Source of the DNA: an uncultured Pelagibacteraceae bacterium
GTDB lineage: Bacteria; Pseudomonadota; Alphaproteobacteria; Pelagibacterales; Pelagibacteraceae
Assembly (NCBI GenBank): GCA_902613855.1
Contig: CACMIX010000001.1
Coordinates: 288,717-352,716 of the forward strand
Length of the DNA: 64,000 nt
Direction of reading: 5' to 3'
The notes beneath the pieces were generated by a model that worked only from the letters and a program-made list of their open reading frames with translations, was not told where the DNA came from and ran no database searches. Both the position numbers and the translations under genes were made by a program. This document shows, one piece after another, positions 27,936 to 44,319 of the stretch; the stretch's first letter is position 1; each line of letters begins with the position of its first letter.

Positions 27936-29231
27936 ATGTTTTTACATACAAAATTAGAAAATAGAAAAGATCCTATAAAAATTTGTTTTATCGGATGTGG
28001 AAAATTTGTAAGTATGTTTTTGGCTCAATACAATCATCTAGAAAAAATTCAAATAGATTCCATAGTTGATATTAATGTTGATCAAGCAAAGAAAAATTGT
28101 TTGAAAAGTGGATTAAATGAACAAGTAGTTAAACAAATAAATTTTTCAAATTCTTTAGAGGAAGTTCTTGATAGAGATATCGAAATTTTTATTGAGGCAA
28201 CAGGCAACCCAATAGTTGGAACTGTACATGCAACAAAGATTATAAAAAGTAAGAAAAATATTATATTAGTCAATGTTGAAGCGGATATAACTTGTGGTAA
28301 ATATTTATCTGATCTTGCAAAAGAAAAAGGTGTTATCTGTTCGATGGCTTATGGCGATCAACCATCTTTAATTCTAGAACAAATAGAGTGGGCAAGATTA
28401 AACGGATTTTCAATAGTTTGTGCTGGTAAAGGAACAAAATATCATCCAACTTTTGAATATTCTACACCTGACACTGTTTGGGGTCACTATGGCCTAACTA
28501 AAGAGCGAGCTGAAAATGAATCTGGAATGAACCCCAAAATGTTTAATAGTTTTTTATGTGGAGACAAGTCTGCAATTGAAATGTGCGCTGTGAGTAATGC
28601 AGCTAACTTAAACTGCCCTAGTAATGGATTAACATTTCCTCCGGTTGGTGTTTACGATATTGCAAAAAAAATGATCCCAAAAAATGATGGTGGTCTAATT
28701 GAATTTGATGGTCAAGTTGAAGTTATTTCAAGTATAGATTTAGAAAAAAAAGATATTCCAAATGATTTAAGATGGGGTGTTTATATTGTTATTAAAGCAC
28801 AGAACGAATATGTAAAAAATTGTTTTAAAGATTACGGCATGGTTACAGACGCATCTGGAAACTATTCTGCTATTTGGAGACCCTATCATTATATTGGACT
28901 AGAGCTTGCACAGACAGTTTACTCAATAGCTCTAGACAATAGAGCAACAGGCTATACAAAAAATTATAATGCTGATGTTGCAAGTTTAGCGAAGAAAGAT
29001 TTAAAAGTTGGTGAAAAACTGGATGGAGAAGGAGGCTTCTGTGCTAGAGGGCGGTTAGTTACATCTCAAAAATCTAAAAAAGAAATGATCTTACCTCTAG
29101 GTCTTACTGATAATGCTGTATTAAAAAGAGATATAAGTAAGGATGAAGTTATTAGACTTGATGATGTCGAGTTAAATCTTCCAACTGAAGTGATCGAAGC
29201 AAGAAACTACCAATATAATTTATTAAATTAG
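27936..29231 (+). CDS. NAD(P)-binding oxidoreductase with SAF domain (COG4091-type 'predicted homoserine dehydrogenase')
   Basis: 431 aa. N-terminal Rossmann GxGxxG (FIGCGKFV). Overall similarity recalled to the COG4091 family; the substrate is unknown. Confidence 0.5.
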   Translation: MFLHTKLENRKDPIKICFIGCGKFVSMFLAQYNHLEKIQIDSIVDINVDQAKKNCLKSGLNEQVVKQINFSNSLEEVLDRDIEIFIEATGNPIVGTVHATKIIKSKKNIILVNVEADITCGKYLSDLAKEKGVICSMAYGDQPSLILEQIEWARLNGFSIVCAGKGTKYHPTFEYSTPDTVWGHYGLTKERAENESGMNPKMFNSFLCGDKSAIEMCAVSNAANLNCPSNGLTFPPVGVYDIAKKMIPKNDGGLIEFDGQVEVISSIDLEKKDIPNDLRWGVYIVIKAQNEYVKNCFKDYGMVTDASGNYSAIWRPYHYIGLELAQTVYSIALDNRATGYTKNYNADVASLAKKDLKVGEKLDGEGGFCARGRLVTSQKSKKEMILPLGLTDNAVLKRDISKDEVIRLDDVELNLPTEVIEARNYQYNLLN

Positions 29232-30499
29232 TTATATTTCTTTTCCATTACTAAATCTAAAAATAAAGAAGCGGTCCAAGAGAAGTTACTTGCTCCAAAT
29301 GCTTTTCCAGTTTTAAAACTGTAGTATTCAAAAAAGCCATTTTTTTTAATTAGATTAATTGTTTTTTCCTTAATTTTATTAGCAAAGTTTTTATCTTTAT
29401 TTTTTAACCCTTGATAGATAATCCAATTACAATTTATCCAAACAGGACCTCTCCAGTAACGCTTTTCCTCAAACTTTTTATGATTAGGCTTAATACTAGA
29501 AAATATGTATTTCTTTGTATGGTTATGATTTTTTAAATTTTTAATTATTTTTTTATTAATAGTTTGATTTTTTAAGTCAGCAAATAAAATAAAATAATTT
29601 GTAATTGATGGTACAATAATTTTTTTTTTATTTCTTATATCATAATTTGTAAAAACTCCTTTTTTCTCATTATATAATTTTTCAATCTGATTTTCTGATT
29701 TTAAAATAAATTTTTTTAATTTATTGTGCTCTAAATTGAATGATTTAAGTAATTCTAATAAATCTTTATTTGCTCTCAAAAATATAGAGTTAAAACCTAC
29801 ATCAACAACATTAAACATTGATTTATTATAAAGTTTTTTTGGATTATATTTATTTTTTCTAAGATGATTTTTAATTGTTACGTATCTATCATAATCTGCA
29901 TCTAAGGGTCTGTATTCTGGATTTATAACTTTATTATCCCCTCGTTTATATTTCAAATTTTTTTCAACTTTAACTTCATTCATAGAATAGTCCCAAAGTG
30001 GAGAATTATCATATCCACTTTCCCAAGGATGCAATATTGAAACTAGACCAGTATTTTTTGGGTCTCTATATTTAATTAACCATTCATGATATTTTTTCAA
30101 TTTTTGAACTATTGATTTAATTTTTACTTTATCTAAAATTTCTATTTTATTTTTGTCTAAAATTTTCTTTAAAATAATTGCAAGAACTGGAGGTTGAGTT
30201 ATTCCTGATGAATGTATCTTGTTTCCACAATTCCATACTGAATGATTTGGATAATAATTTGTTTTTAAATCATGGAATAAGATATGAGGTATCATACCAT
30301 CTTTCCATTGACCCCTTAAAAGTGTTGTTATTTCATCAAGTGCATACTTTAAATTAAAGTATGAGTATCCGAGGGAAATAAAGCCAGAGTCCCATTTCCA
30401 TTGTGCCGGATACAATTTGTTATTTGTAGGTAATGTGTAGCCTTTCTTTTTATTCCCTAACAAAACTTTCTTTGCTTCTTCTATTAATTTATTTCTCAA
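29228..30499 (-). CDS. GH63-like (alpha/alpha)6-barrel glycoside hydrolase; candidate glucosyl-/mannosylglycerate hydrolase
   Basis: 423 aa. Motifs HPWESGYDNSPLWD, RYWRGPVWINCNW and FFEYYSFKTGKAFGASNFSWTASLFLDL resemble MGH/GH63-type enzymes. Overlaps the upstream permease gene by 4 nt. Confidence 0.55.
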   Translation of the reverse strand: MRNKLIEEAKKVLLGNKKKGYTLPTNNKLYPAQWKWDSGFISLGYSYFNLKYALDEITTLLRGQWKDGMIPHILFHDLKTNYYPNHSVWNCGNKIHSSGITQPPVLAIILKKILDKNKIEILDKVKIKSIVQKLKKYHEWLIKYRDPKNTGLVSILHPWESGYDNSPLWDYSMNEVKVEKNLKYKRGDNKVINPEYRPLDADYDRYVTIKNHLRKNKYNPKKLYNKSMFNVVDVGFNSIFLRANKDLLELLKSFNLEHNKLKKFILKSENQIEKLYNEKKGVFTNYDIRNKKKIIVPSITNYFILFADLKNQTINKKIIKNLKNHNHTKKYIFSSIKPNHKKFEEKRYWRGPVWINCNWIIYQGLKNKDKNFANKIKEKTINLIKKNGFFEYYSFKTGKAFGASNFSWTASLFLDLVMEKKYN

Positions 30500-31689
30500 C
30501 CTTTGACACTCCCTGCAGTAAGACCACTAACTAGATATTTTTCAAAATAAACAAAAATAAATAGAACAGGCAAAGTTACAATAACTGATCCAGCCATTAA
30601 ATATTGTCTAGGTGTTTCTGCATCACCACTTAAATATTGTATGGCTCTTGAAAGAGTAAAAGAATTAGGGTTATCTAGAAACATTAAAGAAAATAAAAAT
30701 TCATTCCAAGCTATCATAAATACATATAAAGCCACAGAAGAAATTGCAGGAATACTTAATGGAATTATAATTTTAGAAATTATTCCAAACCAACTAAGTT
30801 TGTCTAATATTGCTGCCTCTTCTAATTCCTTTGGGATACTTTTGAAGTATCCTTGAAGCATGTAGATAGCTACTGGAAGCGTTGTAGCTGTATAAACAAT
30901 TAATAATCCTTCTATAGAGTTTCTGAGGCCTAATTGACTAAAAATTGTATATAAAGGAATTACTAAAACTATCGCTGGAAACATATAAATTATTAATATT
31001 GATGTTGACATAAATGTTTTTCCAAAAAAGTTTAATCGAGCAATTGCATATGCTGCTGGAATTGCAAAAAGAAGAGTTATGATCACAGTTCCTACAGATA
31101 CAATAGTGCTGGTTAAAATATATTTACCAAATTTATAAGATTTAAAGATTACAAAATAGGAATTAAATAAGTCCTTCAAATCTTGGCCAAAATTAATACT
31201 AAAATCTAAGGGGTTAACTAATAAAGCAATTTGAGTTTTAAAACTTGTTATTAACATCATGTAAAAAGGAAAAAGAATTACAAACGAAAAAAATAAAATA
31301 CCAAATAAAGTTAAAAAATCAAAAAAAATTACTTGAGTAGAATGTTCCTGCTTTAAATCTTCAAAACTGTATTTATTTATTTTATTAACAAAAAAATATA
31401 AAACTAAAAAAATACCAATATTGTACCATAAGGGTAACTTTTGAATAATATAACCATCACAAATTACAAAAATTAAAGAAAAAATAATTGATTTATAAAA
31501 AATTTTAATTTTATTGCCTACTCTTAAGTGAGCAAAAGATATTAGAAGACCAAAAATAAAAATTATTTGTAAATTAAAGTTTTGAATATCCAACCCTTGC
31601 AAAGTTGCTAATATTTTCCATATGGAAACTAAGAAAACCAAAAAAAATGAAGATATTAATGGAAATAAAATTAAATTTTTAGTTTTCAT
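30496..31689 (-). CDS. carbohydrate ABC transporter permease (MalG/CUT1 type) with an extra ~105-aa N-terminal membrane extension
   Basis: The C-terminal ~290 aa has the canonical 6-TM permease and EAA loop (ELEEAAILDKLSWFG). The first ~105 aa contain about four additional hydrophobic segments. Confidence 0.85.
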   Translation of the reverse strand: MKTKNLILFPLISSFFLVFLVSIWKILATLQGLDIQNFNLQIIFIFGLLISFAHLRVGNKIKIFYKSIIFSLIFVICDGYIIQKLPLWYNIGIFLVLYFFVNKINKYSFEDLKQEHSTQVIFFDFLTLFGILFFSFVILFPFYMMLITSFKTQIALLVNPLDFSINFGQDLKDLFNSYFVIFKSYKFGKYILTSTIVSVGTVIITLLFAIPAAYAIARLNFFGKTFMSTSILIIYMFPAIVLVIPLYTIFSQLGLRNSIEGLLIVYTATTLPVAIYMLQGYFKSIPKELEEAAILDKLSWFGIISKIIIPLSIPAISSVALYVFMIAWNEFLFSLMFLDNPNSFTLSRAIQYLSGDAETPRQYLMAGSVIVTLPVLFIFVYFEKYLVSGLTAGSVKG

Positions 31690-32938
31690 CCACCCTCTTT
31701 CCTAAAAGTTTGAAGTAAAAAAACATAAACAACAAAAGTAAAACTACAATAACTATTGAAACAGCAGATCCCATTCCTATATCAGATACAGCAAAACCTT
31801 GTTGATAAACATTAATTGGTAAAGTTCTGGTACCTGAGGCACCACCAGTAAGTAGGAAAACATCCTCAAACTTATTAAAATTCCAAATAAATCTTATCAT
31901 AAATAGAATTGATATAACGGCTGTAATTTGAGGAAGTGTTATTTTAAAAAACTTTTGAAATGGACTTGCTCCATCAACATCTGCTGCTTCATATAGTTCT
32001 TTTGGAATAGCCTGAAGTCTTGCAAGAATAAATAAAAAAGCTAAAGGAAAATATCTCCAAATTTCAAACATAATTACTGTTGTAAGAGCTAGTCTTAGTT
32101 TAAAATCGAACCCTAAAATATTTATTGTAATATATTTTTGCCCTAGCAAATTGATTGGTGTCTCTATAACCTGATAATTGATTAACAAGCTATTTAGTGT
32201 CCCGCTATTTGGATCTAATAGAAGTTCCCAAGTGTAAGCTAAAGCCACAACTGGAGCAACATAGGGAAAAAGTAAAACACTCCGCATAAAAGTTCTTCCA
32301 TAAAATTTTTGATTAACCATTTGAGCTGTTAAAATACCAAAGATAATTGATCCAACTGTACCAAAAAATGTGTAGTAAAAAGTTGTGAGAAGCAGGTCTA
32401 TAAATTCATCATCAAACAAAACTTTTTTAAAATTTTTTAAAGTAAAAGTGGCATTAAGCAATATATTATCAGAAGTTCCATCTAATTTAGGTTTAGTTGA
32501 TTTAAGGACTTTTTTATTTATTATTGAGCCGTCATTTGTTTCGAAAACTACTGTAAAATTTTCTCTATATTTTGCAGGCCAATTGCCAAATTTACACTTT
32601 AAAGTATATTTTTTGTAATCACATCTTGTGTCTAGCTCTTCAATCTCAAAATTTTTTGGGAATTTATCTTGAAATGAAACATCTCTGATTTCTTGAAGTA
32701 AAGAGCTATTTCTTAATTTATATAAAATTTTTATTTTTGAGGGATCTTCTGAAATGGATTTAACAATTTTTTTTGCCCTAGGTTCTGGAATTCTAATATC
32801 TTTTAATTCAACTTCCTTAAAACTAATCCAAACATTTGCAAAAATAGGAAATAAAATTATTGCAAAAACTAAAGCAACTGCAGGTAAAGTTAAAATATAT
32901 GCAGTCTTCTTTTCGGTATTTGCTAAAGTATCTTTCAT
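31679..32938 (-). CDS. carbohydrate ABC transporter permease (MalF/CUT1 type) with a large loop after TM1
   Basis: 419 aa. EAA loop ELYEAADVDGASPFQKF. There is a ~130-aa hydrophilic insertion between the first and second hydrophobic segments. Confidence 0.85.
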   Translation of the reverse strand: MKDTLANTEKKTAYILTLPAVALVFAIILFPIFANVWISFKEVELKDIRIPEPRAKKIVKSISEDPSKIKILYKLRNSSLLQEIRDVSFQDKFPKNFEIEELDTRCDYKKYTLKCKFGNWPAKYRENFTVVFETNDGSIINKKVLKSTKPKLDGTSDNILLNATFTLKNFKKVLFDDEFIDLLLTTFYYTFFGTVGSIIFGILTAQMVNQKFYGRTFMRSVLLFPYVAPVVALAYTWELLLDPNSGTLNSLLINYQVIETPINLLGQKYITINILGFDFKLRLALTTVIMFEIWRYFPLAFLFILARLQAIPKELYEAADVDGASPFQKFFKITLPQITAVISILFMIRFIWNFNKFEDVFLLTGGASGTRTLPINVYQQGFAVSDIGMGSAVSIVIVVLLLLFMFFYFKLLGKRVDEN

Positions 32939-32988
32939 AAAAAAAGCGGATAAGTAATCTTATCCGCTTTTTTAATTAATTTAAATTA

Positions 32989-34317
32989 CTAGAATTTAGT
33001 TAGTGCTTTGTTAATCATATCAACAGCCTCATCTACATCAATTTGGTCATCAATATAAAGTCTAGTGATTCTATTTATAAATTGAGAGTTAATTACTTTT
33101 GATGCTCTAGATAGTTCACCTTCTTTAACTCCCCATCTATTCGCAGTGTCTAATCCGGCAACGATATTATTTATAACATCTGGATCATAAAGATCTGACA
33201 AAGGAGCTTTTCTATCAACACCAACCGGTAGTTTACTCCAAGCTTTTGTAAATGCCTCTGGATCACTGGCATTTCCTCTTCTCACTGGAAATTTACCTTC
33301 TGGAGCAATAGATAAAGTACTTGTATATCCTTCATCCATTGAATACATGATAAATTGTTTTGCCTCATCAGTATCAGCATCAGCTGTTATACCAAAGTAT
33401 CTAACATCTGCCCATGCTGCGCCTTTTTTATTACTAGGTCCACTAAAATTTGTTATGAAACCAGTTTTAGATGCTAGTTCAGGTGATGTTGGATCACTAT
33501 TTATTGTTGGTGGAGCTGAGTCTCTTAAACCTGCTAGCTCATCCATAATAAATGGAGACCAAATAATCATTGGAGTTTTTCCAGCAAAATAAAGTGCTCT
33601 AGATTGTTTCCAATAAAGTTCACCTGGAGGACTAGCTTTTGCTATAATTTTATAAAACTCTAATGCCTCTTTTAACTTTTTGCCTTGTTTTTTTATTCCA
33701 CCTTTTTTAACAATATTAACTCCATTAGCTAAAAGAACATGTTCTAGAACCTGACTCATAAAATTTTCATCAGTCTTAGTTGCTGCTACAAATCCAAACA
33801 TACCATTTGTTTTTGATAGTTTTTCAACAGCAGCGACGATGTTAGCATAACTTGTTGGTGGTTCTAGTTCAGCGTTGTCAAAAAGATCTTTTCTATAAAC
33901 AACCATTTGCGTCCATCCATCAACTGGAACAGCTGCAATTTTTGATCCTGACTTAGCCATGTTTAGAGCACCTGGAGCAAAAGTATCTTTACCAAGTTCT
34001 TTTACAACAGCGTTATTTGCATCAACATCTAAAATTCCAGCTTCTGCCCAAGGTAATACATATTGTAAAGTGTGATAAATCACATCTGGTAAATCACCTG
34101 CTGCCGCAGCAGCAGTTGCTCTTGTACCTAATTCCTTTTCCTCAATTGGAATTACATCAACCTTAATACCTGTCTTAGCCTCAAAAGCTTTGGCCATTTC
34201 CTCTTGCTTAGCCATTCGAGCAGGTTGGACTTCCGTTGTCCAAAATTTAATATCTGCATAAACAACACTTGTAATGAATAATGATATTATGCAAAATATT
34301 TTTATTATATTTTTCAT
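32989..34317 (-). CDS. ABC transporter extracellular solute-binding protein, family 1 (sugar)
   Basis: 442 aa with an N-terminal signal peptide (MKNIIKIFCIISLFITSVVYA) and an SBP_bac_1-like sequence. Its codon and amino-acid composition is visibly less Lys/Asn-biased than its neighbours. Confidence 0.85.
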   Translation of the reverse strand: MKNIIKIFCIISLFITSVVYADIKFWTTEVQPARMAKQEEMAKAFEAKTGIKVDVIPIEEKELGTRATAAAAAGDLPDVIYHTLQYVLPWAEAGILDVDANNAVVKELGKDTFAPGALNMAKSGSKIAAVPVDGWTQMVVYRKDLFDNAELEPPTSYANIVAAVEKLSKTNGMFGFVAATKTDENFMSQVLEHVLLANGVNIVKKGGIKKQGKKLKEALEFYKIIAKASPPGELYWKQSRALYFAGKTPMIIWSPFIMDELAGLRDSAPPTINSDPTSPELASKTGFITNFSGPSNKKGAAWADVRYFGITADADTDEAKQFIMYSMDEGYTSTLSIAPEGKFPVRRGNASDPEAFTKAWSKLPVGVDRKAPLSDLYDPDVINNIVAGLDTANRWGVKEGELSRASKVINSQFINRITRLYIDDQIDVDEAVDMINKALTKF

Positions 34318-34368
34318 TTCTCCTCCTAGGATTTTTTTTCTAAAAAATTACAATATTTAGTAGTTTGT

Positions 34369-34382
34369 ATCAAATATTTGAT
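34369..34382. promoter_or_regulatory. perfect 14-bp palindrome ATCAAATATTTGAT upstream of the SBP gene; candidate operator
   Basis: Read directly. It is centred about 58 nt upstream of the SBP start codon (34317, minus strand) in a 133-nt spacer. Confidence 0.25.
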
Positions 34383-34450
34383 TAAATTTTATTAATAAAA
34401 ATTATTAGTTATTTTCGTAAAAAATTAAATTCTAACAATTTAAAGTTGTA

Positions 34451-35506
34451 TTAAAGTTTTATTCTAATTTGATTTTTATCGAAAATTAATAAATCTTTAT
34501 AATTAAAACCAATTGTATCTGTAATTGTAACGTTACTTGGAATTTTTGCACTTAACTGTTTTTTATCTTTTTTTATGTAAACAATTTTTTCATTACCAAG
34601 ATTTTCAATTAACTCTACTTCTGGATTAAAAGTAAAATCACTTTTATCGTTAACTTTTAAATGTTCAGGTCTAATTCCAACATAATGTTTTGTTTTCTCA
34701 AATTTAATATTTTTAAAATTAATTTCTAAACCTAATAATTTGAATGTATTTTCAGAAATAATATTTTTCTCACTAATTTCTAGTATATTCATCTTTGGAG
34801 TCCCAATAAACTGAGCTACAAAAACATTAGATGGATCATTATATATTTCCTCTGGTGTTCCTATTTGCTCAATATTTCCTCTATTAAGTATTACTATTCT
34901 GTCAGCTAAAGTCATAGCCTCAACTTGATCATGTGTAACATAAATCATATTAGTCTTAATTTGATTATGTAACTTTGATATTTCAACTCTCATTTCAGCT
35001 CTTAATGCTGCATCTAAATTAGATAATGGTTCATCAAAGAGAAATATCTTTGGATTTCTAGTTATAGCTCTCCCGATTGCAACTCTTTGTCTTTGTCCAC
35101 CAGATAATTCTTTTGGTCGTCTATCTAAAAGATCTTCTATTTTTAAAATTTTTGCAGCCTCAGTTACTTTTGACAAAATCTCTTCTTTTGGTCTTTTCTC
35201 TATTTTTAATCCAAAAGACATATTTTCAAATACATTCATGTGTGGATAAAGGGCGTACGATTGAAATACCATAGCTGTTTGACGTTTTGAGGGGTGAAGC
35301 TCGTTTATCTTTTGATCATTAATAAATATTTCTCCCTCATCAATTTTCTCAAGTCCAGCAATCATTCTTAATAATGTTGATTTACCACATCCTGACGGCC
35401 CAACTAAAACAAGAAATTCATCTTCTTTACCCTTTAAATTGAAATCTGAAATTATTTTATTTGAACCAAAGGATTTATGAACTCCTTTAAATTTTATATT
35501 TGCCAT
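34451..35506 (-). CDS. sugar ABC transporter ATP-binding protein (MalK/UgpC type)
   Basis: Walker A GPSGCGKST, signature LSGGQRQR, Walker B IFLFDEPLS, and a C-terminal TOBE-like regulatory domain. 351 aa. Confidence 0.92.
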   Translation of the reverse strand: MANIKFKGVHKSFGSNKIISDFNLKGKEDEFLVLVGPSGCGKSTLLRMIAGLEKIDEGEIFINDQKINELHPSKRQTAMVFQSYALYPHMNVFENMSFGLKIEKRPKEEILSKVTEAAKILKIEDLLDRRPKELSGGQRQRVAIGRAITRNPKIFLFDEPLSNLDAALRAEMRVEISKLHNQIKTNMIYVTHDQVEAMTLADRIVILNRGNIEQIGTPEEIYNDPSNVFVAQFIGTPKMNILEISEKNIISENTFKLLGLEINFKNIKFEKTKHYVGIRPEHLKVNDKSDFTFNPEVELIENLGNEKIVYIKKDKKQLSAKIPSNVTITDTIGFNYKDLLIFDKNQIRIKL

Positions 35507-35604
35507 CTCTAATATTAATTAGTTAATAGAACTTAATTAACTTATTTTAATAAATTAAGTATATCAATTAGAAAAAATTTTTTGGAATTTATTAATTAGC
35601 AAAA

Positions 35605-36825
35605 TTAAAGATACTGTTTATTATCTTCATTTACAGCTTTTTCTAACCTGATTAAAAAATCGGGAATTGCACTTTTCACTCTACTCCAAGTAGGTATGAA
35701 AGGTGCATCCATTGGGTTTAAATAAAAATCCTCTCCAGCTCTAATTATATTACTTGAAAACAATTCAACTGCTTTTTCTTCAGTATGAGAGTCAAATTTT
35801 AGACCATTCATTTCAGCATCAGCTCTGTAAGCATCTATTAAATCTAAAGCAGATCTGTAATATGTTGCTTTCAAAGACCTTAGTTGCTCTCTGCTGAAGG
35901 AATGACCTTGAGTTGCTAATTTTTTGATAAAGGTTTTAATAATATCTATAGACATTCTTGATAAACCTTTTTTTTCATTATCTAGAGATAAATCTTGGTG
36001 TTTATGGTCATAAGTATCAGCTAAATCTACTTGGCAAATATTTTGAGGTGAAAAATTTCTTTGCATTTCTGATAATATTCCAATCTCTATACCCCAGTCA
36101 GATGAAATTCTAAGTTCTGGTAAAATATTTCTCCTAAAAGAAAATTCGCCAGCCAATGGGTATTTAAATGATTTCATAAAATCTAAATAGTCACTTTTGC
36201 CAATAGTTTTTTCTAAAGCATTCAATAAAGGAAACACTAATAGTCTTGCTACACGTCCATTCATCTTGTTGTCAGCTACTCTTGGATAAAAGCCTTTACA
36301 AAATTCAAAATTAAACAGTGGGTTTACAACTGGATAAAATAGTTTTGCTAACATTCTTCTATCATAAGTTTTAATATCACAATCGTGTAATGCAACTGAT
36401 CTTGCACTATCTCTTGCAATAGACATTCCTATGCAATACCAAACATTTCTTCCTTTACCATGCTCACTTGGAGCTAATCCTTTTTTTTGTAACTCTTTAT
36501 CTAATTTTTTTAAATTAGGCCCATCATTCCAAAGGATTGTAAAAGGAGTTTCTAATTTTTCAAAAAAAGTCCAAGCTTTCCTTGCTTCAGACTCGCTTGC
36601 TTGATCTAAGCCTATGATTATATGATTTATGTAATTTGTTTTACTAATCTCTTTTACAATATTAGGCAATGCATCACCTTTTAATTCTGAATAAAGACAT
36701 GGCAGGATAAGTTCCATCTTCCTTTCTTTAGAAAAACCCAAAAGTTCCTTTTCTATTTGTTCTAAAGATTTTGTTCCAAAATCATGAAGAGTTGAAATTA
36801 TTCCATTTTGAGAAAAATCACTCAT
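35605..36825 (-). CDS. glucosyl-3-phosphoglycerate synthase-like glycosyltransferase (GpgS/MpgS type)
   Basis: 406 aa GT-A fold. GKGRNVWY and LHDCDI (DxD) motifs. Its length and its pairing with an MpgP-family phosphatase match the long GpgS type as I recall it. The sugar donor cannot be determined from sequence alone. Confidence 0.55.
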   Translation of the reverse strand: MSDFSQNGIISTLHDFGTKSLEQIEKELLGFSKERKMELILPCLYSELKGDALPNIVKEISKTNYINHIIIGLDQASESEARKAWTFFEKLETPFTILWNDGPNLKKLDKELQKKGLAPSEHGKGRNVWYCIGMSIARDSARSVALHDCDIKTYDRRMLAKLFYPVVNPLFNFEFCKGFYPRVADNKMNGRVARLLVFPLLNALEKTIGKSDYLDFMKSFKYPLAGEFSFRRNILPELRISSDWGIEIGILSEMQRNFSPQNICQVDLADTYDHKHQDLSLDNEKKGLSRMSIDIIKTFIKKLATQGHSFSREQLRSLKATYYRSALDLIDAYRADAEMNGLKFDSHTEEKAVELFSSNIIRAGEDFYLNPMDAPFIPTWSRVKSAIPDFLIRLEKAVNEDNKQYL

Positions 36826-36836
36826 AAAATATAGTA

Positions 36837-37640
36837 TTAATTATTATTTATTTTAACTAGGGCCATTTTGATCACATCTGCCCAGCCCTCAGGTGATGGC
36901 TTATTTGTTATTATTAAATCATTTATAGGGATTTGATCTAATGTAAATTTATCATTAAAAACTAAGCAAGGAAAATCACTAACTTTAAGCATATCTAAAT
37001 CATTGTAATTATCACCAACTGCTATTGTTTTTACATTTTTATTATTTTTTTTAAAAAATCTCACAAATACCTGAAGTGCTTTAGATTTATTTACTTTATC
37101 AGTTAAATTAATAACTCTCCCACCTTCTTGTAAATTTAAACCTTTATTTCTAACAATTTTAGATAATTCATTTCTTTCACTTTTGTTTCCCTCAAATATA
37201 AAAGGAATAGTGTATTTACGATCTAAAGCCAATTTTAATTGTTCATTTTCTAAACCTAAAATTAAGCTTTGTTTCTTCTTGTTCATTTCAGACAACCATT
37301 TACATTTATTTTGTAAATCTATTGGCACCAACTTTTCAAAAATTTTTATAAGATTATCTTTTTCTCTGCTTAAAATTAATTCTTTAGGTAAATTAGAATT
37401 TAATAAATCTAAGCCATTTATAGCAGCACCATTTTCAGAGATGTAAGGTAAACTTTTACCTAATTCTTTGTTAAATACTAAAATTTCTTTTTCAGTTTTA
37501 CTTGTGTTGGGTATAATAAAAATTCCCTTAGATATTAATTGTTTTATATAGTCTTTTATTTTATCAAATTTGAAAGTATCTCTATGAAGAAGTGAGCCAT
37601 CAAGATCTGTAAATATCAAAACTTTGAATACTTTTTCCAT
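36837..37640 (-). CDS. HAD-IIB phosphatase of the mannosyl-/glucosyl-3-phosphoglycerate phosphatase (MpgP/YedP) family
   Basis: 267 aa. Motif I FTDLDGSLL, motif II PNTSKT, motif III GDNYNDLDML, with a cap domain between motifs II and III. Confidence 0.65.
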   Translation of the reverse strand: MEKVFKVLIFTDLDGSLLHRDTFKFDKIKDYIKQLISKGIFIIPNTSKTEKEILVFNKELGKSLPYISENGAAINGLDLLNSNLPKELILSREKDNLIKIFEKLVPIDLQNKCKWLSEMNKKKQSLILGLENEQLKLALDRKYTIPFIFEGNKSERNELSKIVRNKGLNLQEGGRVINLTDKVNKSKALQVFVRFFKKNNKNVKTIAVGDNYNDLDMLKVSDFPCLVFNDKFTLDQIPINDLIITNKPSPEGWADVIKMALVKINNN

Positions 37641-37684
37641 TTAACGATGTTTATAAAATATTCAAATAAATAACAATTTTACAT

Positions 37685-37778
37685 ATTAGTCTTGTTCAAT
37701 TATAAATATTAGCATAAACACTCATGAAATTCATTAATGCCCTTGTGGTTAAATCAGAAGACTCAAAGGACTTAAAAT
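37685..37778 (+). repeat. left copy of a 94-nt imperfect direct repeat (54 nt of tRNA-Leu upstream sequence plus the tRNA 5' part)
   Basis: Aligned by hand to 40942-41035. 48/54 positions are identical upstream and 34/40 in the tRNA 5' part. Same orientation, constant offset of 3257 bp. Confidence 0.85.
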
Positions 37779-37824
37779 ACCTTTTCCTTTTAAGAGCCCT
37801 AGTTCTTGTGTTATTGCATGAATC
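37739..37824 (+). pseudogene. decayed tRNA-Leu(UAA) copy (pseudo-tRNA)
   Basis: It retains the GCCCTTG acceptor 5' strand and the AAGGACTTAAAAT anticodon arm. It has D-arm substitutions and a 1-nt insertion after the anticodon loop. The 3' half is only faintly alignable (..agttc..), and there is no complementary acceptor 3' strand or CCA. Confidence 0.7.
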
Positions 37825-37876
37825 AAAAAACTTATTTGAAACATTTAATATAGTCATATAGTTATTTAATCTTATT

Positions 37877-39595
37877 ATGAAGTATATATTAGGTATTAAA
37901 TATGGTGGACATGACACATCAGCAGCCTTACTTTTCAATGGAAAACTTATAGCCGCTTGTTCTCAAGAAAGATACACAAGAGATAAACACAGCAGATTAT
38001 TTCCTAAAGATGCGGTAATGGATTGTTTAAAAATTGGAAAAATAGATATTAATCAAATTAATGAAATAGCTTTTGTTAATGATTTAAAATCAATGACTAG
38101 AGAGATTTATCTTAAACCAGCTATTCAAAGTGATGAAAGATTAGATTTTTTAATTAAAGACATTGATAAAATTAAAAGAATGAACAATATGGATCAGATC
38201 ATAAGAAATAATTTAAATTATAAAGGTACTATAAAATATTATAGGCATCATCTATGTCATGTAGCAAGCGCATATTACCCTAGTGGATTTAAAAATGCTT
38301 TGTGTTTAAGTATTGATGGAGTCGGAGAATATGAAACTGGAATTATAGCATCTGGTAAATTAGGCAAAATTAAAACACTGAATAATGAAAATAAGTACCC
38401 TCATTCCTTAGGATTATTATATTCAGCAATAACATATTACCTAGGTTGGAAACATCATTGTGATGAAGGAATCATCATGGGATTAGCTCCTTACGGAAAT
38501 TCATCAAAAAAAATTCCAGGATTTAAAAAGACATATCTACAAGTTTTTAGAGAAATACTTACTAATAAAGGAAATTTTCAATATAAGATAAATTTAGATT
38601 ATATAGATTATTACTCAGAAAGAGATAAATGGGTTACCGATAAATTCATTAAGATTTTTGGACCAAAAAGAAAATACGAGGAACCATTAACAAATCATCA
38701 TAAGAATATTGCTGCAGCCTTACAGGATCAATTGGAAAGTGTTGTTTTAAAACAATTAAAAATTGCAAGAAAAAAATTCAAATTTAATAAATTATGCTTG
38801 GCTGGAGGGGTGGCATTAAACTGTTCTTTAAATGGAAAAATAGCAAAAAGTAAAATATTCAAAGAAATATTTATACAACCTGCAAGTGGAGATGATGGTT
38901 GTGCTTATGGTGCAACTTTACTTGCATATACTTCATCAAAAAAAAAAATGATACCAAAAAGAATGCATAATTTCTATAAAGGATCATGTTTCACAAATAA
39001 AGAAATAGAGTCGGAACTTAAAAAGAAAAAATTAAATTACGTTCGTCCTAAAAATTTATATCATGAAGTTTCAAAACATTTGAAGGATGGAAAAATTATA
39101 GGTTGGTTTCAAGGTGGGGCTGAATTTGGACCACGAGCTTTAGGAAATAGATCAATATTATGTAAACCATATCCAAAACAAATGAAAGACCATCTAAATA
39201 TTAGAGTTAAATTTAGAGAGGAATTTAGACCATTTGCACCATCTGTTTTGAATGAATATAGGGAAGATTTTTTCCATATAAATCAAGATAGCCCACATAT
39301 GCTTATGGCATGCAAAATTAAAAAAAATAAGATGAAAGATGTTCCAGCAATAGTTCATATTGATGGGACATGTAGAGTTCAAACAGTTAAAAAAGAAATT
39401 AATGAGAAATTTTATAATTTAATTAAAGAATTCAACCATTTGACAAAGATACCAGTATTATTAAACACTTCTTTTAATGTCAAAGGCCAGCCTATTGTCA
39501 ATACTCCATCAGAAGCTATAGAAACTTTTAAAGCTACTAAAATAGATGTCTTAGCTGTAGGAGATTTTTTATTAACTAAAAAAAGTAATGTCTGA
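37877..39595 (+). CDS. carbamoyltransferase, NodU/CmcH family
   Basis: 572 aa. N-terminal ASKHA/Kae1-like ILGIKYGGHDTSAALL, HHLCHVASAY, and C-terminal carbamoyltransferase domain (FGPRALGNRSIL, NTSFN). Confidence 0.85.
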   Translation: MKYILGIKYGGHDTSAALLFNGKLIAACSQERYTRDKHSRLFPKDAVMDCLKIGKIDINQINEIAFVNDLKSMTREIYLKPAIQSDERLDFLIKDIDKIKRMNNMDQIIRNNLNYKGTIKYYRHHLCHVASAYYPSGFKNALCLSIDGVGEYETGIIASGKLGKIKTLNNENKYPHSLGLLYSAITYYLGWKHHCDEGIIMGLAPYGNSSKKIPGFKKTYLQVFREILTNKGNFQYKINLDYIDYYSERDKWVTDKFIKIFGPKRKYEEPLTNHHKNIAAALQDQLESVVLKQLKIARKKFKFNKLCLAGGVALNCSLNGKIAKSKIFKEIFIQPASGDDGCAYGATLLAYTSSKKKMIPKRMHNFYKGSCFTNKEIESELKKKKLNYVRPKNLYHEVSKHLKDGKIIGWFQGGAEFGPRALGNRSILCKPYPKQMKDHLNIRVKFREEFRPFAPSVLNEYREDFFHINQDSPHMLMACKIKKNKMKDVPAIVHIDGTCRVQTVKKEINEKFYNLIKEFNHLTKIPVLLNTSFNVKGQPIVNTPSEAIETFKATKIDVLAVGDFLLTKKSNV

Positions 39596-40946
39596 GAGAC
39601 TATCAACTCAAATTTCTAAATATTTTGATCGCCTATGGCCTTTGAATAGATCAATCACAGGACAAGGTGTAAGAAAAACTCATAAAATTTTAAAAGAAAT
39701 AATTCCTTTTAAAACTCTTGAAATTCCATCTGGTCTAAAAGTACATGATTGGAAGGTACCAAAAGAATGGATAATTAAAGATGCATATATTTTAACTCCC
39801 GAAGGTAAAAAAATTTGTGACATGAAAGAAAACAATTTGCATGTTCTAAATTATTCATCTCCAGTAAATAAGACAGTTTCACTTAAAGAACTACAAAAAC
39901 ATTTATTTAGCATTAAAGAAATTCCAAATGCTATTCCTTATTTAACAAGTTATTATGGTAAAAACTGGGGATTTTGTATTCAGGATAATATAAGAAAAAA
40001 ATTAAAACCAGGAAAATATAAAGTTTTAATTAAATCAAAATTTATAAATGGATCTCTTACTATTTCCGAAAAAATTCTAAAAGGAAAAAGTAAAAAAGAA
40101 ATTTTATTTACAACATACACCTGCCATCCATCATTGGCTAACAATGAGTTAAGTGGTCCTTTAGTTCAGTCTTTTTTATATAAAAAAATATTATCTATGA
40201 AAAATAGATATTTTACATACCGTTTTGTTTTTCACCCTGAAACAATTGGATCAATCGCATACCTGGCTAAAAAAGGTAAATATTTAAAAAAAAATGTTTT
40301 TGGAGCATATAATCTGACATGTCTGGGTTTAAAAAATAGTAAAATTACATATAAAAAATCAAAAATAGGTAACAGTTTATCCGATTTTGTAGCTCTAGAA
40401 ATAATGAAAAATATTAATAAAAAAAAAATTGAAGTATTGGATTTTTTTCCAACAGGAAGTGATGAAAGGCAGTATTGTTCACCAGGTTATAATTTACCAA
40501 TGGGTGTTTTTATGAGAGGTGTTCCTGGTACTTACAAAGAGTACCATACATCACTAGACAATAAAAAGATTTTATCAAACAAAGTTTTAATTGAAATGAT
40601 TAATATTTATTATCGAATAATTAAATATTTTGAAAAAAATAAAAATGAATTATTTGAAAAAAAAATTAAAGTTATAAAAAATAATTATAACAAGAAAGGT
40701 CAATTTTATTTAAATCTTAAACCTTATTGTGAACCTCACTTCAGCAAAATAAATTTACAGAGCACAATAGGAGGTAAAAGAAAACAAATAAGAGATTTGA
40801 AAGCAATAAAATGGTTACTTTCATATTCAGATGGAGAAAATAGCATCAAAACAATTTCAAAAAAAAGTGGTATAAAATTAAAAATTTTAAAATTCAATGC
40901 AAATTTATGTTGTAAAAAAAAACTTTTAAAAAAAATTGATTATTAA
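39588..40946 (+). CDS. DUF4910/COG4310 protein with aminopeptidase-like (M28-fold) domain
   Basis: 452 aa. Motifs W.LNRSITG, HPSLANNELSG, FHPETIGSIAYL and GSDERQY are typical, as I recall, of this family, which is found in glycan-biosynthesis loci. Overlaps the carbamoyltransferase stop by 8 nt. Confidence 0.6.
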   Translation: MSERLSTQISKYFDRLWPLNRSITGQGVRKTHKILKEIIPFKTLEIPSGLKVHDWKVPKEWIIKDAYILTPEGKKICDMKENNLHVLNYSSPVNKTVSLKELQKHLFSIKEIPNAIPYLTSYYGKNWGFCIQDNIRKKLKPGKYKVLIKSKFINGSLTISEKILKGKSKKEILFTTYTCHPSLANNELSGPLVQSFLYKKILSMKNRYFTYRFVFHPETIGSIAYLAKKGKYLKKNVFGAYNLTCLGLKNSKITYKKSKIGNSLSDFVALEIMKNINKKKIEVLDFFPTGSDERQYCSPGYNLPMGVFMRGVPGTYKEYHTSLDNKKILSNKVLIEMINIYYRIIKYFEKNKNELFEKKIKVIKNNYNKKGQFYLNLKPYCEPHFSKINLQSTIGGKRKQIRDLKAIKWLLSYSDGENSIKTISKKSGIKLKILKFNANLCCKKKLLKKIDY

Positions 40947-41035
40947 TCTTGTTTAATTATATATATTAACATAAATACTCATGAAATTCATTAAAGCCCT
41001 CGTGGTGAAATTGGTAGACACAAAGGACTTAAAAT
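40942..41035 (+). repeat. right copy of the 94-nt direct repeat (upstream region plus 5' part of the functional tRNA-Leu)
   Basis: See the left copy at 37685-37778. Confidence 0.85.
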
Positions 41036-41081
41036 CCTTGCCGCTTGCGGAGTGCCAGTTCGAGTCTGGCCGAGGGCACCA
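40996..41081 (+). tRNA. tRNA-Leu (anticodon UAA), CCA encoded
   Basis: Folded by hand: acceptor GCCCTCG/CGAGGGC, anticodon arm AAGGA-CTTAAAA-TCCTT, long variable arm, T arm GCCAG-TTCGAGT-CTGGC, discriminator A plus CCA. Confidence 0.93.
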
Positions 41082-41085
41082 TTAA

Positions 41086-41856
41086 ATGAACAAACTACAA
41101 ATTATTTCGGACAAAAATAAAAAATCTCTTAGAATTAAATCTTTGCTTACAAAAAAAATTAAAGCAAATAAATTTAAAAAATTAAATCTTATAATTGTAA
41201 TAGGAGGTGATGGTTTTATGCTTCAAACACTTAAAAAAAATAAGAGTCCTAAAAAGCAATTTTATGGAATTAATTCAGGAAATTATGGTTTTCTAATGAA
41301 TATATTTTCTTCAAAAAACATTATTAAAAATTTAACAAAAGCTAATATGATCTCTATTTCCCCTTTAGAAATGACAGTAAAAAATAAAAATAATAAATCA
41401 AAAAAATCAATAGCTATTAATGAAGTTTCAGTTCTAAGACAAAGTAGGCAAGCAGCATCGTTATCAATTAAACATGGTTCAAAACAAATAATGAAAAACT
41501 TAGTTTCTGATGGTGTTCTGGTTTCTACCCCCGCAGGAAGCACTGCCTATAATTTATCAGTTCACGGTCCAATATTAAGTTTGAATTCGAAAAAATTATC
41601 TATTTCTCCAATAAGCCCATTTAGACCTAGAAGATGGAAAGGAAAAATCGTTAATGATAAATCAAAAATTACAATCACTAATTTAAACCCAGTTAAAAGG
41701 CCCATAAGTGCGGTTGCTGATAATTTAGAAGTAAGAAATGCAAAATCAATTACTGTTAAAACTAACTACAAAATTAAGTTCAACTTACTTTATGATAAAA
41801 ATAGAAGTCTACAAAAAAAAATTAAAATAGAGCAATTAAGAAGAGAAACAAACTAG
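41086..41856 (+). CDS. nadK: NAD+ kinase
   Basis: GGDGFML motif and PAGSTAYNLS motif. 256 aa. Confidence 0.88.
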   Translation: MNKLQIISDKNKKSLRIKSLLTKKIKANKFKKLNLIIVIGGDGFMLQTLKKNKSPKKQFYGINSGNYGFLMNIFSSKNIIKNLTKANMISISPLEMTVKNKNNKSKKSIAINEVSVLRQSRQAASLSIKHGSKQIMKNLVSDGVLVSTPAGSTAYNLSVHGPILSLNSKKLSISPISPFRPRRWKGKIVNDKSKITITNLNPVKRPISAVADNLEVRNAKSITVKTNYKIKFNLLYDKNRSLQKKIKIEQLRRETN

Positions 41857-41861
41857 ATCAA

Positions 41862-42746
41862 ATGGATACAGACCAATATTTTTTTAAAAAAAATGGTTAT
41901 CTTTTAAAAAAAAATTTAATTAATAAGAAAACGATAGATAAAATAAACAAACTCATAAATGAAGTTGTATCAAAAGATAAACAAAAAAATAAAAAGAAGA
42001 TTACAAATGGGACACAATCTTATGACAATTATCATTTTGTTTACAGTTCCAATTCCTCAAAAAATAAAGAAATTTTAAGACTTAACAATCCTCAAAACAG
42101 ACATAAAATTTTTTATGATTTGTCTAGAAATAAAAAAATAATATCAATAGTTAAAAAACTGATTGGTGGATCAGTAAGATTTCATTTGGGAAAATTAAAC
42201 TTTAAGCTTCCAAATAAGAAAAAAGGAAGCGAAGTTGGGTGGCATCAAGATTGGGCTTTTTATCCTCACACCAACGATGATTTAGTAACCGTTGGTATTT
42301 ACTTAGATGATTGTTCAGAAAAAAATGGTCCTCTTAAAATAATAAAAAATTCGCACACAAAAAAACTATATAGCCATCATAGTAGTGAAAACTTTTTTGT
42401 TGGAAAAATTGATACAAGTAAGAGCAAAATTGGGGTTAATAATAGTATTTCAATTACAGGTACTGCTGGAACGGTTGTTTTTTTTCATTGCAGATCTGTT
42501 CATGGATCTGGCAGCAATCAAATGAACAGTTCAAGACCTTTAATTCTATTTGGTTATAGAGCATGTGATGCTTGGCCGTTAATTAATGATGGAAACCCTC
42601 ATCCTGAAGTTAACTTAGAAAATTATAATAAAAATATTATTGTCGGAAAAAAATCTATAAAACCAAGATTAACAAAAGTCCCAATCATTATTCCATTACC
42701 TAAAAAAAAACATTATGTTTCTATTTACGAACTTCAAAAAAAATAA
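41862..42746 (+). CDS. phytanoyl-CoA dioxygenase (PhyH) family Fe(II)/2-oxoglutarate dioxygenase
   Basis: 294 aa. WHQDWAFYPH (HxD facial triad), a distal His in FFHCRSVHGSGSN, and a basic residue downstream. Confidence 0.7.
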   Translation: MDTDQYFFKKNGYLLKKNLINKKTIDKINKLINEVVSKDKQKNKKKITNGTQSYDNYHFVYSSNSSKNKEILRLNNPQNRHKIFYDLSRNKKIISIVKKLIGGSVRFHLGKLNFKLPNKKKGSEVGWHQDWAFYPHTNDDLVTVGIYLDDCSEKNGPLKIIKNSHTKKLYSHHSSENFFVGKIDTSKSKIGVNNSISITGTAGTVVFFHCRSVHGSGSNQMNSSRPLILFGYRACDAWPLINDGNPHPEVNLENYNKNIIVGKKSIKPRLTKVPIIIPLPKKKHYVSIYELQKK

Positions 42747-42748
42747 AC

Positions 42749-43435
42749 ATGAAACATAAATTAGAGTTGATATATTTTAAAATGAGAGCTTTGGCAGAAG
42801 CTCCAAGACTTCTTCTTCATTATACTGAAACTGAGTATGACGATATAATGTCATGGGAATACTACGGTAAAGAATGGTCAGAGATAAAATATAAAGTTCC
42901 ATTTAGACAATTACCTATGTTAGTGGTTGATCAAAAACATGAAATTTGTCAGAGTATTGCAATATTAACCTTCATTGAAAAAATTGCAGGTATCAATATT
43001 TCAGATCCAATACTAAATGCTAAAGCGAATGCTGTTATGCAAAGTGCACAAGAATTATTTATGCCGCTCAATCCTGCAATAAATTTTGCAGTAGGGGACA
43101 GTTTTAAAAAAAAAAAAGAGGATATGATGCCTTTTTTGAATACAAGATTTGAGGATTTAGAAAGAGCTTTAAAAGATAATGATAAAAAGTTTTATGTAGA
43201 TGACAAGCCACATGGGTGTGATTTTGCGGTATACCATCATTTAGATTTATCAAAATTACTCGATACAAAACTTATAAATAAATTTCCAAGACTTGAAAAA
43301 TTTATTGAAGATATTGAGTCAATAGAAACAGTTAAATCTTATCTAAATTCAAGACCTGAATTGATTGATGTGAGTGTTGAGCCAAAGTTAGTGATAGATG
43401 GAATTGCTCATCCGACTGGTGTTAAAAAAACTTAA
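42749..43435 (+). CDS. glutathione S-transferase family protein
   Basis: 228 aa. Thioredoxin-like N-terminal domain (FRQLPMLVVDQKHEICQSIAILTFI) plus an alpha-helical C-terminal domain. Confidence 0.65.
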   Translation: MKHKLELIYFKMRALAEAPRLLLHYTETEYDDIMSWEYYGKEWSEIKYKVPFRQLPMLVVDQKHEICQSIAILTFIEKIAGINISDPILNAKANAVMQSAQELFMPLNPAINFAVGDSFKKKKEDMMPFLNTRFEDLERALKDNDKKFYVDDKPHGCDFAVYHHLDLSKLLDTKLINKFPRLEKFIEDIESIETVKSYLNSRPELIDVSVEPKLVIDGIAHPTGVKKT

Positions 43436-43437
43436 TT

Positions 43438-43575
43438 ATGAAAAAAATTCATCCACTTGCCTTAGTGGTAATTGTTTTAGTAGTTGGTTTTTTTTCTTTT
43501 AAAATTATGTCTTTCTTAGGTTGTTATGTTCGTATTGAAGACGTATCTAGATGCTTGAAACTAACAGCGTGGTAA
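43438..43575 (+). CDS. possible 45-aa small hydrophobic protein (below the ORF-track cutoff)
   Basis: ATG at 43438 lies 2 nt after the GST stop. It translates to MKKIHPLALVVIVLVVGFFSFKIMSFLGCYVRIEDVSRCLKLTAW with one clear TM segment. There is no other support. Confidence 0.3.
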   Translation: MKKIHPLALVVIVLVVGFFSFKIMSFLGCYVRIEDVSRCLKLTAW

Positions 43576-43580
43576 GACTC

Positions 43581-44162
43581 ATGAAAAAACTTTTAGGCAT
43601 TATGGTTCTGGGTTTGTTGTGGATTATTCCAGTATCAGCTGATGAAAGATTTATTCCTTTAGAGCTCTTCACTGGCGGTGAAATAAGAGAAGATACAGAA
43701 ATTGAATTTACAAATGCTAATTTGATTTTTGGTAAAAAGAAAAGAAAAAAAATTATTGGACCTGAAGATTGGAAAAATCCTCAATCTGGAGAAACAATAA
43801 AGGTTTATAAAAGAACAAGAAAAAGTCAAAGTGGATTAAAAACACAGTTATTTACAGTCACTAATAATGGACAGTGTATTGGTAGAGTTTGGGATAGTAG
43901 ACGTGGAGGTAGAGTAATAAAAAATGGATGTAAATTTCCTTTAGGAGTTTGGAAAAAAGGTGAGACCAGGTCATTTAAAGGTGCTTCAGGCGGTAAGCCA
44001 AGAATAATAGAATTGACTATTTTAAAATTAGGAAAGAAGCAAAAAGATAAAGTAAAATTTAATTGGAAGCTTTATGATGGAAGTGGAAAATTAATGGATG
44101 ACAATGATTATACTTTTTCCCCTGGAAAAGCTATGACTAAGCTTAATGATAAAAAATTATAA
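43581..44162 (+). CDS. uncharacterised secreted, strongly basic protein
   Basis: The ATG at 43581 gives a canonical signal peptide, MKKLLGIMVLGLLWIIPVSA|DE. The mature protein is Lys/Arg-rich with two Cys. No recognisable domain. Confidence 0.6.
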   Translation: MKKLLGIMVLGLLWIIPVSADERFIPLELFTGGEIREDTEIEFTNANLIFGKKKRKKIIGPEDWKNPQSGETIKVYKRTRKSQSGLKTQLFTVTNNGQCIGRVWDSRRGGRVIKNGCKFPLGVWKKGETRSFKGASGGKPRIIELTILKLGKKQKDKVKFNWKLYDGSGKLMDDNDYTFSPGKAMTKLNDKKL

Positions 44163-44243
44163 TTAATCTCGACACTCTAAAAATAAAACAGTTATAAGTT
44201 ATTAATTATATTAAAAAAAATTATTATTGAGTTTATTGAGTGA

Positions 44244-44319
44244 TGGTGCCCCCGCACGGATTCGAACCGCGGACCTATTGATTACAAATCAATTGCTCTA
44301 CCAACTGAGCTACAAGGGC
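44244..44319 (-). tRNA. tRNA-Thr (anticodon UGU), CCA encoded
   Basis: The reverse complement folds as acceptor GCCCTTG/CGGGGGC (two G.U pairs), D arm GCTC/GAGC, anticodon arm ATTGA-TTTGTAA-TCAAT, T loop TTCGAAT. Confidence 0.9.

Follow-up and report, generated by a model that had tools for sequence, protein, structure and literature searches.

The window analysed here is a 64,000-nucleotide (nt) stretch of DNA from an uncultured SAR11 bacterium of the family Pelagibacteraceae (assembly GCA_902613855.1, contig CACMIX010000001.1, positions 288,717 to 352,716 of the forward strand), and positions are given below as those of the window. It contains a 3.26-kilobase (kb) cassette of two genes, located between a decayed and an intact copy of a tRNA-Leu(UAA) gene. 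The SAR11 tRNA-Leu(UAA) gene next to the NAD kinase gene is an insertion hotspot, and the cassette was probably inserted there as circular DNA that brought along a tRNA promoter and 5′ part of its own, through a crossover at the anticodon loop catalysed by an integrase acting in trans. The feature in the window is itself ordinary in kind, representing one aged cassette in such an island; a more novel lead is offered by the array of cassettes found across the population, which has a conserved leader.

Two tRNA-Leu copies around a two-gene insert

A repeat search of the window returned one 95-nt direct repeat, in which positions 37684-37778 align with 40941-41035 at an offset of 3257 nt and 87% identity. 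The 83/95 identical positions are divided between a segment upstream of the tRNA gene (49/55) and the 5′ part of the tRNA itself (34/40). An original prediction, made from the sequence of the window, had described such a colinear repeat and had placed it over the promoter-proximal region and the 5′ half of the tRNA gene, not over its 3′ end. Both points are borne out; in dinucleotide-preserving shuffles of the whole 64-kb window (n = 100), the best 95-mer matched the right copy at a mean of 47.9 positions (standard deviation 1.3) and at a maximum of 52/95. A profile of 97 copies of the repeat (nhmmer) detected the two known copies and no third one in the window, including the region left of the gene for a 406-amino-acid (aa) protein that is described below. 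As in genomic islands, direct repeats originating from the tRNA target lie at both ends of the insert. The G+C content of the window is approximately 30%, and its relatives are all Pelagibacteraceae, represented by single-cell or cultured genomes.

The right copy is an intact tRNA-Leu(UAA) gene, as predicted, recognised by ARAGORN and by the Rfam tRNA model (58.6 bits) and showing no difference from the SAR11 consensus. The left copy gave no tRNA match with ARAGORN, nor with Rfam even at E ≤ 10, and its minimum-free-energy fold is not a cloverleaf (z-score 0.06); its designation as a pseudo-tRNA therefore stands. The two further lesions attributed to it were also recovered, namely a 1-nt insertion after the anticodon loop (A at 37779) and a faint 3′ half, which can be aligned in register with the tRNA 3′ half at 24/46 identical positions, a level attained by only 4.7e-5 of window positions. 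Because this match persists in register, the left copy is the decayed remnant of a full-length tRNA gene.

Divergence is distributed unevenly between and within the copies. Compared with the SAR11 consensus, the left upstream segment has changed at 0/47 conserved columns and at 1/55 positions overall, versus 6/40 in the tRNA part that adjoins it (Fisher p = 0.04), and the right upstream segment has seven mismatches, four of them at conserved columns. The six differences between the copies in the tRNA 5′ part all represent decay in the left copy. A hand count of changed G/C sites in that copy gave 19/31 in the 3′ half versus 3/17 in the 5′ half, an approximately threefold difference in decay that sets in at the anticodon loop.

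The interval between the copies is fully occupied by two genes, with 98 nt free at its left end and an overlap with the repeat at its right end, where the stop codon of the second gene falls within the first bases of the right copy. The predicted identities of both were confirmed by Pfam. The first encodes a carbamoyltransferase (Carbam_trans_N, 1.7e-61; Carbam_trans_C, 2.5e-70), the second a DUF4910 protein, and the genes overlap by 8 nt; no cognate integrase accompanies them. The two cargo genes probably function in glycan modification. Genes for a carbamoyltransferase and a DUF4910 protein lie next to each other, in either order, in approximately 40 of 80 metagenome loci (L139-L164 and others), with DUF4910 proteins sharing 33-97% identity with that of the window, and they look like a conserved functional pair.

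The tRNA-Leu site in other SAR11 genomes

The comparison set covered, in 80 SAR11 genomes, the locus of the NAD kinase gene that lies 3′ of tRNA-Leu; this gene adjoins the tRNA in nearly all 80. The site is empty in nine, where a HAD-family hydrolase gene and 43 nt are followed, without any insertion, by the upstream segment, tRNA-Leu and NAD kinase; the spacing from the left segment to the HAD gene in the window is the spacing of these empty sites. In a four-way alignment, the empty site (L025, L040) corresponds to the left copy of the window up to the anticodon loop and to the right copy beyond it. A further 18 genomes with the HAD gene hold other cargo, 1.3-8.3 kb in length, between HAD and tRNA-Leu, and the two genes of the window were found at the tRNA-Leu site in 0/80 genomes. 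Approximately 40 genomes have one or two extra copies of a unit comprising the upstream 55 nt and the tRNA 5′ half, some in tandem, situated 1-7 kb left of the intact tRNA. The suggestion that the cassette is variable, with empty and differently filled sites in relatives, is well supported by these counts.

Nearly all of the 42 extra copies terminate immediately after ...CTTAAAA, at the 3′ edge of the anticodon loop. The junction is near-fixed at the population level, and the window cassette shows only a change of divergence at that point. The 37 segments between copies are 0.8-7 kb long with 1-5 open reading frames (ORFs) each, and 84 of 88 ORFs in these cassettes are oriented in the same direction as the tRNA. 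Their cargo is diverse, 96 ORFs forming 77 clusters that include restriction-modification, Mrr, T5orf172 and GIY-YIG proteins, transporters, oxidases and proteases.

Most chromosomal cassettes open with a conserved arm that has three regularly spaced AGTC motifs in common with the arm of L082, a virome element described in the next section; judged from sequence, shared motifs so spaced would be as expected of integrase arm-binding sites. The conserved leader with which most cassettes begin, reaching approximately 170 nt past the 5′-half junction (L001-L080; for example L001 8393-8567, L007 6066-6239 and L020 186-359), contains three spaced AGTC motifs, an AT-rich block and a tandem direct repeat with a period of 11. 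Both copies of this 11-nt repeat match within one cassette and differ between cassettes, and AGAGAGATAAAAT follows the repeat shortly 5′ of the first ATG. Rfam gave no match on cassette leaders (L016 5600-9100), the exact pattern of the type-A arm gave none in IMG/VR, and a phage-database search with the type-A arm matched in the tRNA part only.

Metagenome contigs carry homologues of the window cassette among different neighbours. L107 has 82% DNA identity over window positions 37724-40937, with an intact tRNA-Leu at the place of the pseudo-tRNA, followed by the same spacer, both genes and NAD kinase, and with no right-hand tRNA; its homology ends at 40937. L106, at 96% identity, departs from the window exactly at the same position, just before the right repeat, and continues into another gene followed by a different upstream segment and tRNA. 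In L113, a clean 5′ half and 51 nt precede a carbamoyltransferase gene of 73% identity. The two genes therefore act as a module whose recurrent boundaries fall at the tRNA and immediately ahead of the following promoter copy.

In five genomes (L026 7682-7772, L045 7680-7772, L068 3417-3509, L071 7681-7771 and L078 462-551), the pair formed by the 406-aa gene and the HAD gene (window 35605-37640) has a decayed promoter and 5′-half copy immediately to its left. The pair thus resembles an older cassette belonging to this island. Growth of the island seems to proceed by accretion, leaving older modules farther from the tRNA. Cargo is also present between the intact tRNA-Leu and NAD kinase in L041, L065, L074 and L107, and in L074 (8243-8382, 9941-9996) a decayed 3′ half persists beside NAD kinase. 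Cargo 3′ of the intact tRNA represents the opposite, conventional geometry, and the site is therefore used from both sides. In the literature, of which coverage was incomplete so that an earlier description is possible, only general statements were found and no description of a cassette island at SAR11 tRNA-Leu(UAA).

The features of the window are listed in Table 1. Left of the cassette, positions 29228-37640 encode a GH63/MGH1-like hydrolase, a sugar ABC transporter, the 406-aa protein, which has no Pfam family, and the HAD phosphatase. This block is missing from that location in 53/80 genomes and may be a compatible-solute module of the glucosylglycerate or mannosylglycerate type.

Table 1. 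Features at and beside the tRNA-Leu(UAA) cassette, in window coordinates.
Feature	Position	Strand	Basis
HAD-family hydrolase (Hydrolase_3; "gpgP-like"), native left neighbour of tRNA-Leu	36837..37640	-	Pfam
Left 55-nt tRNA-Leu upstream (promoter-proximal) segment, native, original position	37684..37738	+	Consensus match, HAD spacing
Pseudo-tRNA-Leu	37739..37826	+	5′ half 37739-37778 (34/40); 3′ half 37780-37825 (24/46)
Spacer from tRNA remnant to first cargo gene, part of cassette	37827..37876	+	Homology to L107, L106 start
Carbamoyltransferase (NodU/CmcH type), cargo gene 1	37877..39595	+	Pfam
DUF4910/DUF2172/HTH_47 (aminopeptidase-like) protein, cargo gene 2	39588..40946	+	Pfam
Right upstream-segment copy, probably came with cassette	40941..40995	+	Consensus mismatches
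Functional tRNA-Leu(UAA)	40996..41081	+	ARAGORN, Rfam
NAD kinase, conserved right neighbour, begins 5 nt past tRNA	41086..41856	+	Pfam

Proposed insertion at the anticodon loop and alternative routes

Integrases that use this tRNA gene are encoded by phages and by small virome elements. Pelagiphages HTVC105P, 109P and 119P integrate at tRNA-Leu(TAA) of SAR11 strain HTCC7211, and the pelagiphage core is the 5′ end or the middle of the tRNA, with 109P supplying the 5′ part (Zhao et al., bioRxiv 10.1101/410191). In HTVC105P, the genes for integrase and RNA polymerase flank the 5′ 45 nt of tRNA-Leu. The tRNA 5′ half was detected on 23 contigs of IMG/VR. L082 (IMGVR_UViG_3300025897_001356), a 7.8-kb contig whose terminal repeat indicates a 7.7-kb circle, carries the tRNA-Leu 5′ half as an attachment site together with an arm, and encodes a 545-aa tyrosine integrase approximately 100 nt downstream, an AEP-type primase and a RusA-like protein. 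Its integrase family comprises 98 clusters on contigs that are either approximately 8 kb long or concatemers, the longest being tandem concatemers of a unit of approximately 7.9 kb, and L188, a TARA scaffold of 20.5 kb, contains 2.5 tandem copies of a related 7.94-kb unit. A recombinase and a replication module are present in L082, L097, L101 and L188, virome elements that share the site. No copy of the L082-type integrase was found integrated at tRNA-Leu in SAR11 chromosomes, its longest contigs being concatemers or circles of approximately 8 kb. One integrase does lie near the tRNA copies, in single amplified genome AG-457-N18 (L024 9018-9809), where the gene for a 264-aa tyrosine integrase (Pfam, 7.8e-14) immediately precedes a tRNA-Leu 3′ half that lacks its 5′ half; this region probably represents the right-hand terminus of a phage or element that has integrated.

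A second hotspot is located 3 kb away, at a tRNA-Thr(UGU) gene on the minus strand (window 44244-44319). The single-amplified-genome contig CACPJV010000001.1 (GCA_902634205.1; L105) is 99.97% identical to the window over 31877-44291 (12.4 kb) and departs from it exactly at the tRNA-Thr anticodon loop (L105 12340-12580), continuing into AGTCT repeats and a gene for HsdM of a type I restriction-modification system. ARAGORN did not find the tRNA-Thr in the L105 locus. The extra element of L105 is a very recent insertion; a genome of 99.97% identity differs by it, and such insertions are therefore recent.

For the window cassette, the favoured explanation is a Campbell-type insertion. The cassette would have arrived as a DNA circle holding its own tRNA-Leu upstream segment and 5′ part as well as an old, already decaying tRNA 3′ part, and would have crossed over with the tRNA-Leu gene of the chromosome in the anticodon loop. 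The left product would then consist of the native promoter, the native 5′ half and the decayed 3′ half of the cassette, dead and still decaying, and the right product of the native 3′ half placed behind an imported promoter and 5′ half, forming a working tRNA. This model fits the two upstream segments, because the left one is native and the right one is divergent as if imported. With no integrase in the cassette, action in trans is the best explanation, and the recombinase would most likely be a tyrosine integrase of a pelagiphage or of a small integrase-primase, satellite-like element, with the cassette as non-autonomous cargo. What we infer here are the circular intermediate, the identity of the recombinase and the order of events.

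Several observations weigh against this explanation. An integrase was found neither between tRNA-Leu copies in the 80 loci nor in the 37 cassette segments. The original prediction had stated that none is present anywhere in the window, and this holds for ORFs of at least 100 aa at 1-45 kb, all of which are housekeeping or metabolic, and for tblastn searches with two integrases, which gave no match in the window; past 45 kb, the window is taken from gene sizes and order to be a tuf, ribosomal-protein and RNA-polymerase region. The window cassette has a tRNA 3′-half remnant in place of the AGTC-repeat arm of most others, and its link to the integrase family is therefore one of shared site and geometry, not of arm homology. 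The unequal decay of the two halves is based on small numbers. L010 and L064 share cargo, yet their right-hand promoter variants differ, so the promoter segment does not always travel with its cargo. A circular form of the window cassette was not recovered, and the 141 nt of homology provided by promoter and tRNA would also permit insertion mediated by RecA.

A broader proposal, which can be advanced only tentatively, is that the locus is an integron-like expression platform, in which co-oriented, integrase-less cassettes are shuffled in trans and transcribed from the duplicated tRNA promoter. Each cassette would follow a live promoter copy and a truncated 5′ half, usually with the leader of approximately 170 nt, and integrases of pelagiphages or satellites would insert and shuffle the cassettes; that of the window would be an old member with the decayed tRNA 3′ half as its leader. 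It is plausible from the sequence that the duplicated segment has been co-opted as a promoter for the cassette. In favour of this are the intactness of the left segment beside a decaying tRNA part and the orientation that cargo genes at this site overwhelmingly share with the tRNA. No terminator-like site was found between the left segment and the carbamoyltransferase gene. The duplicated upstream segment went unflagged in a sigma-70 consensus scan, and a TTTACA-17-TATAAA motif seen by eye across the left boundary of the left copy, with its TATAAA at approximately 37701-37706, is not claimed as a promoter. The HAD gene, which is divergently oriented, also has the left segment in front of it, and this could account for the conservation of the segment equally well.

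The original prediction favoured a route independent of any integrase, such as capture by homologous recombination. On this account, circular or linear DNA from another SAR11 cell, holding a full promoter, tRNA-Leu and the two genes, was inserted by RecA-type recombination over the shared homology, which duplicated the entire tRNA, after which one copy decayed. The left copy was once a full-length tRNA, so the homology would have been long enough for RecA; L107 has the same genes directly downstream of an intact tRNA-Leu, the window itself is without integrase over the range searched, and SAR11 has been reported to recombine at high frequency (PMC7542561). However, the step in decay at the anticodon loop would not be expected from one duplication that then decayed evenly, the right boundary of the cassette (40937-40940) is that of cassettes with site-specific junctions, and the rest of the population displays a near-fixed ...CTTAAAA junction and integrase-type arms. 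Together with the pelagiphage precedent, these features disfavour the route, which is regarded as unlikely.

Less probable again is a prophage or satellite remnant, in which an integrase-bearing element inserted and subsequently lost its integrase and its replication and structural genes, leaving accessory genes behind. Pelagiphages and integrase-primase elements do use the site, the integrase of L024 stands directly beside a tRNA-Leu 3′ half, and degenerate remnants between partial tRNAs have been described in Prochlorococcus islands (10.1101/2020.12.28.424599). However, no phage-like or integrase fragment was detected in 37779-40940, tblastn with the HTVC105P integrase and RNA polymerase gave no match in the window, and 0/37 cassette segments keep an integrase, which makes repeated clean deletion unlikely. 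The remaining suggestion, a local tandem duplication of promoter and tRNA with decay of one copy around two ancestral resident genes, would account for two direct copies in the same orientation 3.26 kb apart, but it is rejected as highly improbable given that the two promoter copies are different sequence variants, that homologous cassettes with modular boundaries have different neighbours (L106, L107, L113), and that HAD is directly beside the tRNA in nine genomes and the cargo genes are at the site in none of the 80.

Significance and relation to known systems

SAR11 bacteria are among the most abundant in the ocean. Their genomes have for many years been portrayed as almost devoid of mobile elements, and the means by which they acquire flexible genes are still under debate. 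The locus offers a sequence-level example, with one essential tRNA gene as the docking site for small modules that are added without a resident integrase. In the window the module is a probable glycan-modification pair, and in other genomes modules carry defence, transport or catabolic genes. The incoming DNA would rebuild the tRNA from its 5′ side, promoter included. The site is easily found in any SAR11 genome or long read and could be used to gauge rates of gene gain, and likewise of phage- or satellite-mediated transfer, in natural populations.

Among known systems, pelagiphage integration (HTVC105P, 109P, 119P and 200P; Zhao et al., 10.1101/410191; Environ Microbiol 2019) involves the same host clade and the same tRNA, with a crossover in the 5′ part or middle of the tRNA and an incoming 5′ part, so that the intact gene comes to lie to the right and a fragment of the 5′ end to the left. 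Unlike HTVC019P-type pelagiphages, the window has no phage gene or integrase between its repeats; its insert is 3.3 kb of metabolic cargo versus a 40-kb prophage, and its duplicated segment includes an additional 55 nt or so upstream, whereas HTVC105P carries no more than approximately 45 nt of the tRNA, preceded by a different upstream sequence. VEIME phage satellites are small, encode a tyrosine integrase and a primase, are concatemeric and have been reported integrated in Pelagibacter (PMC9618062); L082 and L188 fit them by the published description (Eppley et al. 2022, PMC9618062), whereas the window cassette has no VEIME genes and is at most a passenger using the same site.

The tycheposon islands of Prochlorococcus (Hackl et al., 10.1101/2020.12.28.424599; Cell 2023) likewise belong to a streamlined marine bacterium and are anchored at tRNA genes, with successive insertions that push older ones inward, partial tRNA copies that separate modules, and many modules without integrase that carry niche or defence cargo. 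The host is different, however, tRNA-Leu is not among the seven target tRNAs of Prochlorococcus, and tycheposon hallmark genes are missing; a recombinase with a primase/helicase replication module, as in tycheposons and VEIMEs, is absent from the window.

Integrons also hold short, mostly co-oriented cassettes without recombinases and add new ones at a fixed, promoter-side end. The locus differs in having no IntI, attI or attC, and its repeats consist of the tRNA promoter and 5′ half, not of imperfect palindromes; no integrase was found and the cassette ends are direct tRNA copies, although no formal attC model was run. The resemblance is one of way of working, not of membership.

A further likeness is to the cis-mobilisable elements (CIMEs) of the ICESt1 family in Streptococcus thermophilus, which are flanked by attachment sites and have no integrase. 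In both, cargo lies between direct repeats of the attachment-site type, no recombinase is encoded, modules accrete and movement presumably takes place in trans. The recombinase family and the host are different, and for the window the flanks and the absence of an integrase are observed and mobilisation in trans is presumed. Because the defining recombinase is absent, the cassette belongs to no family of integrase-bearing elements, and it is best described as a non-autonomous, CIME-like cassette.

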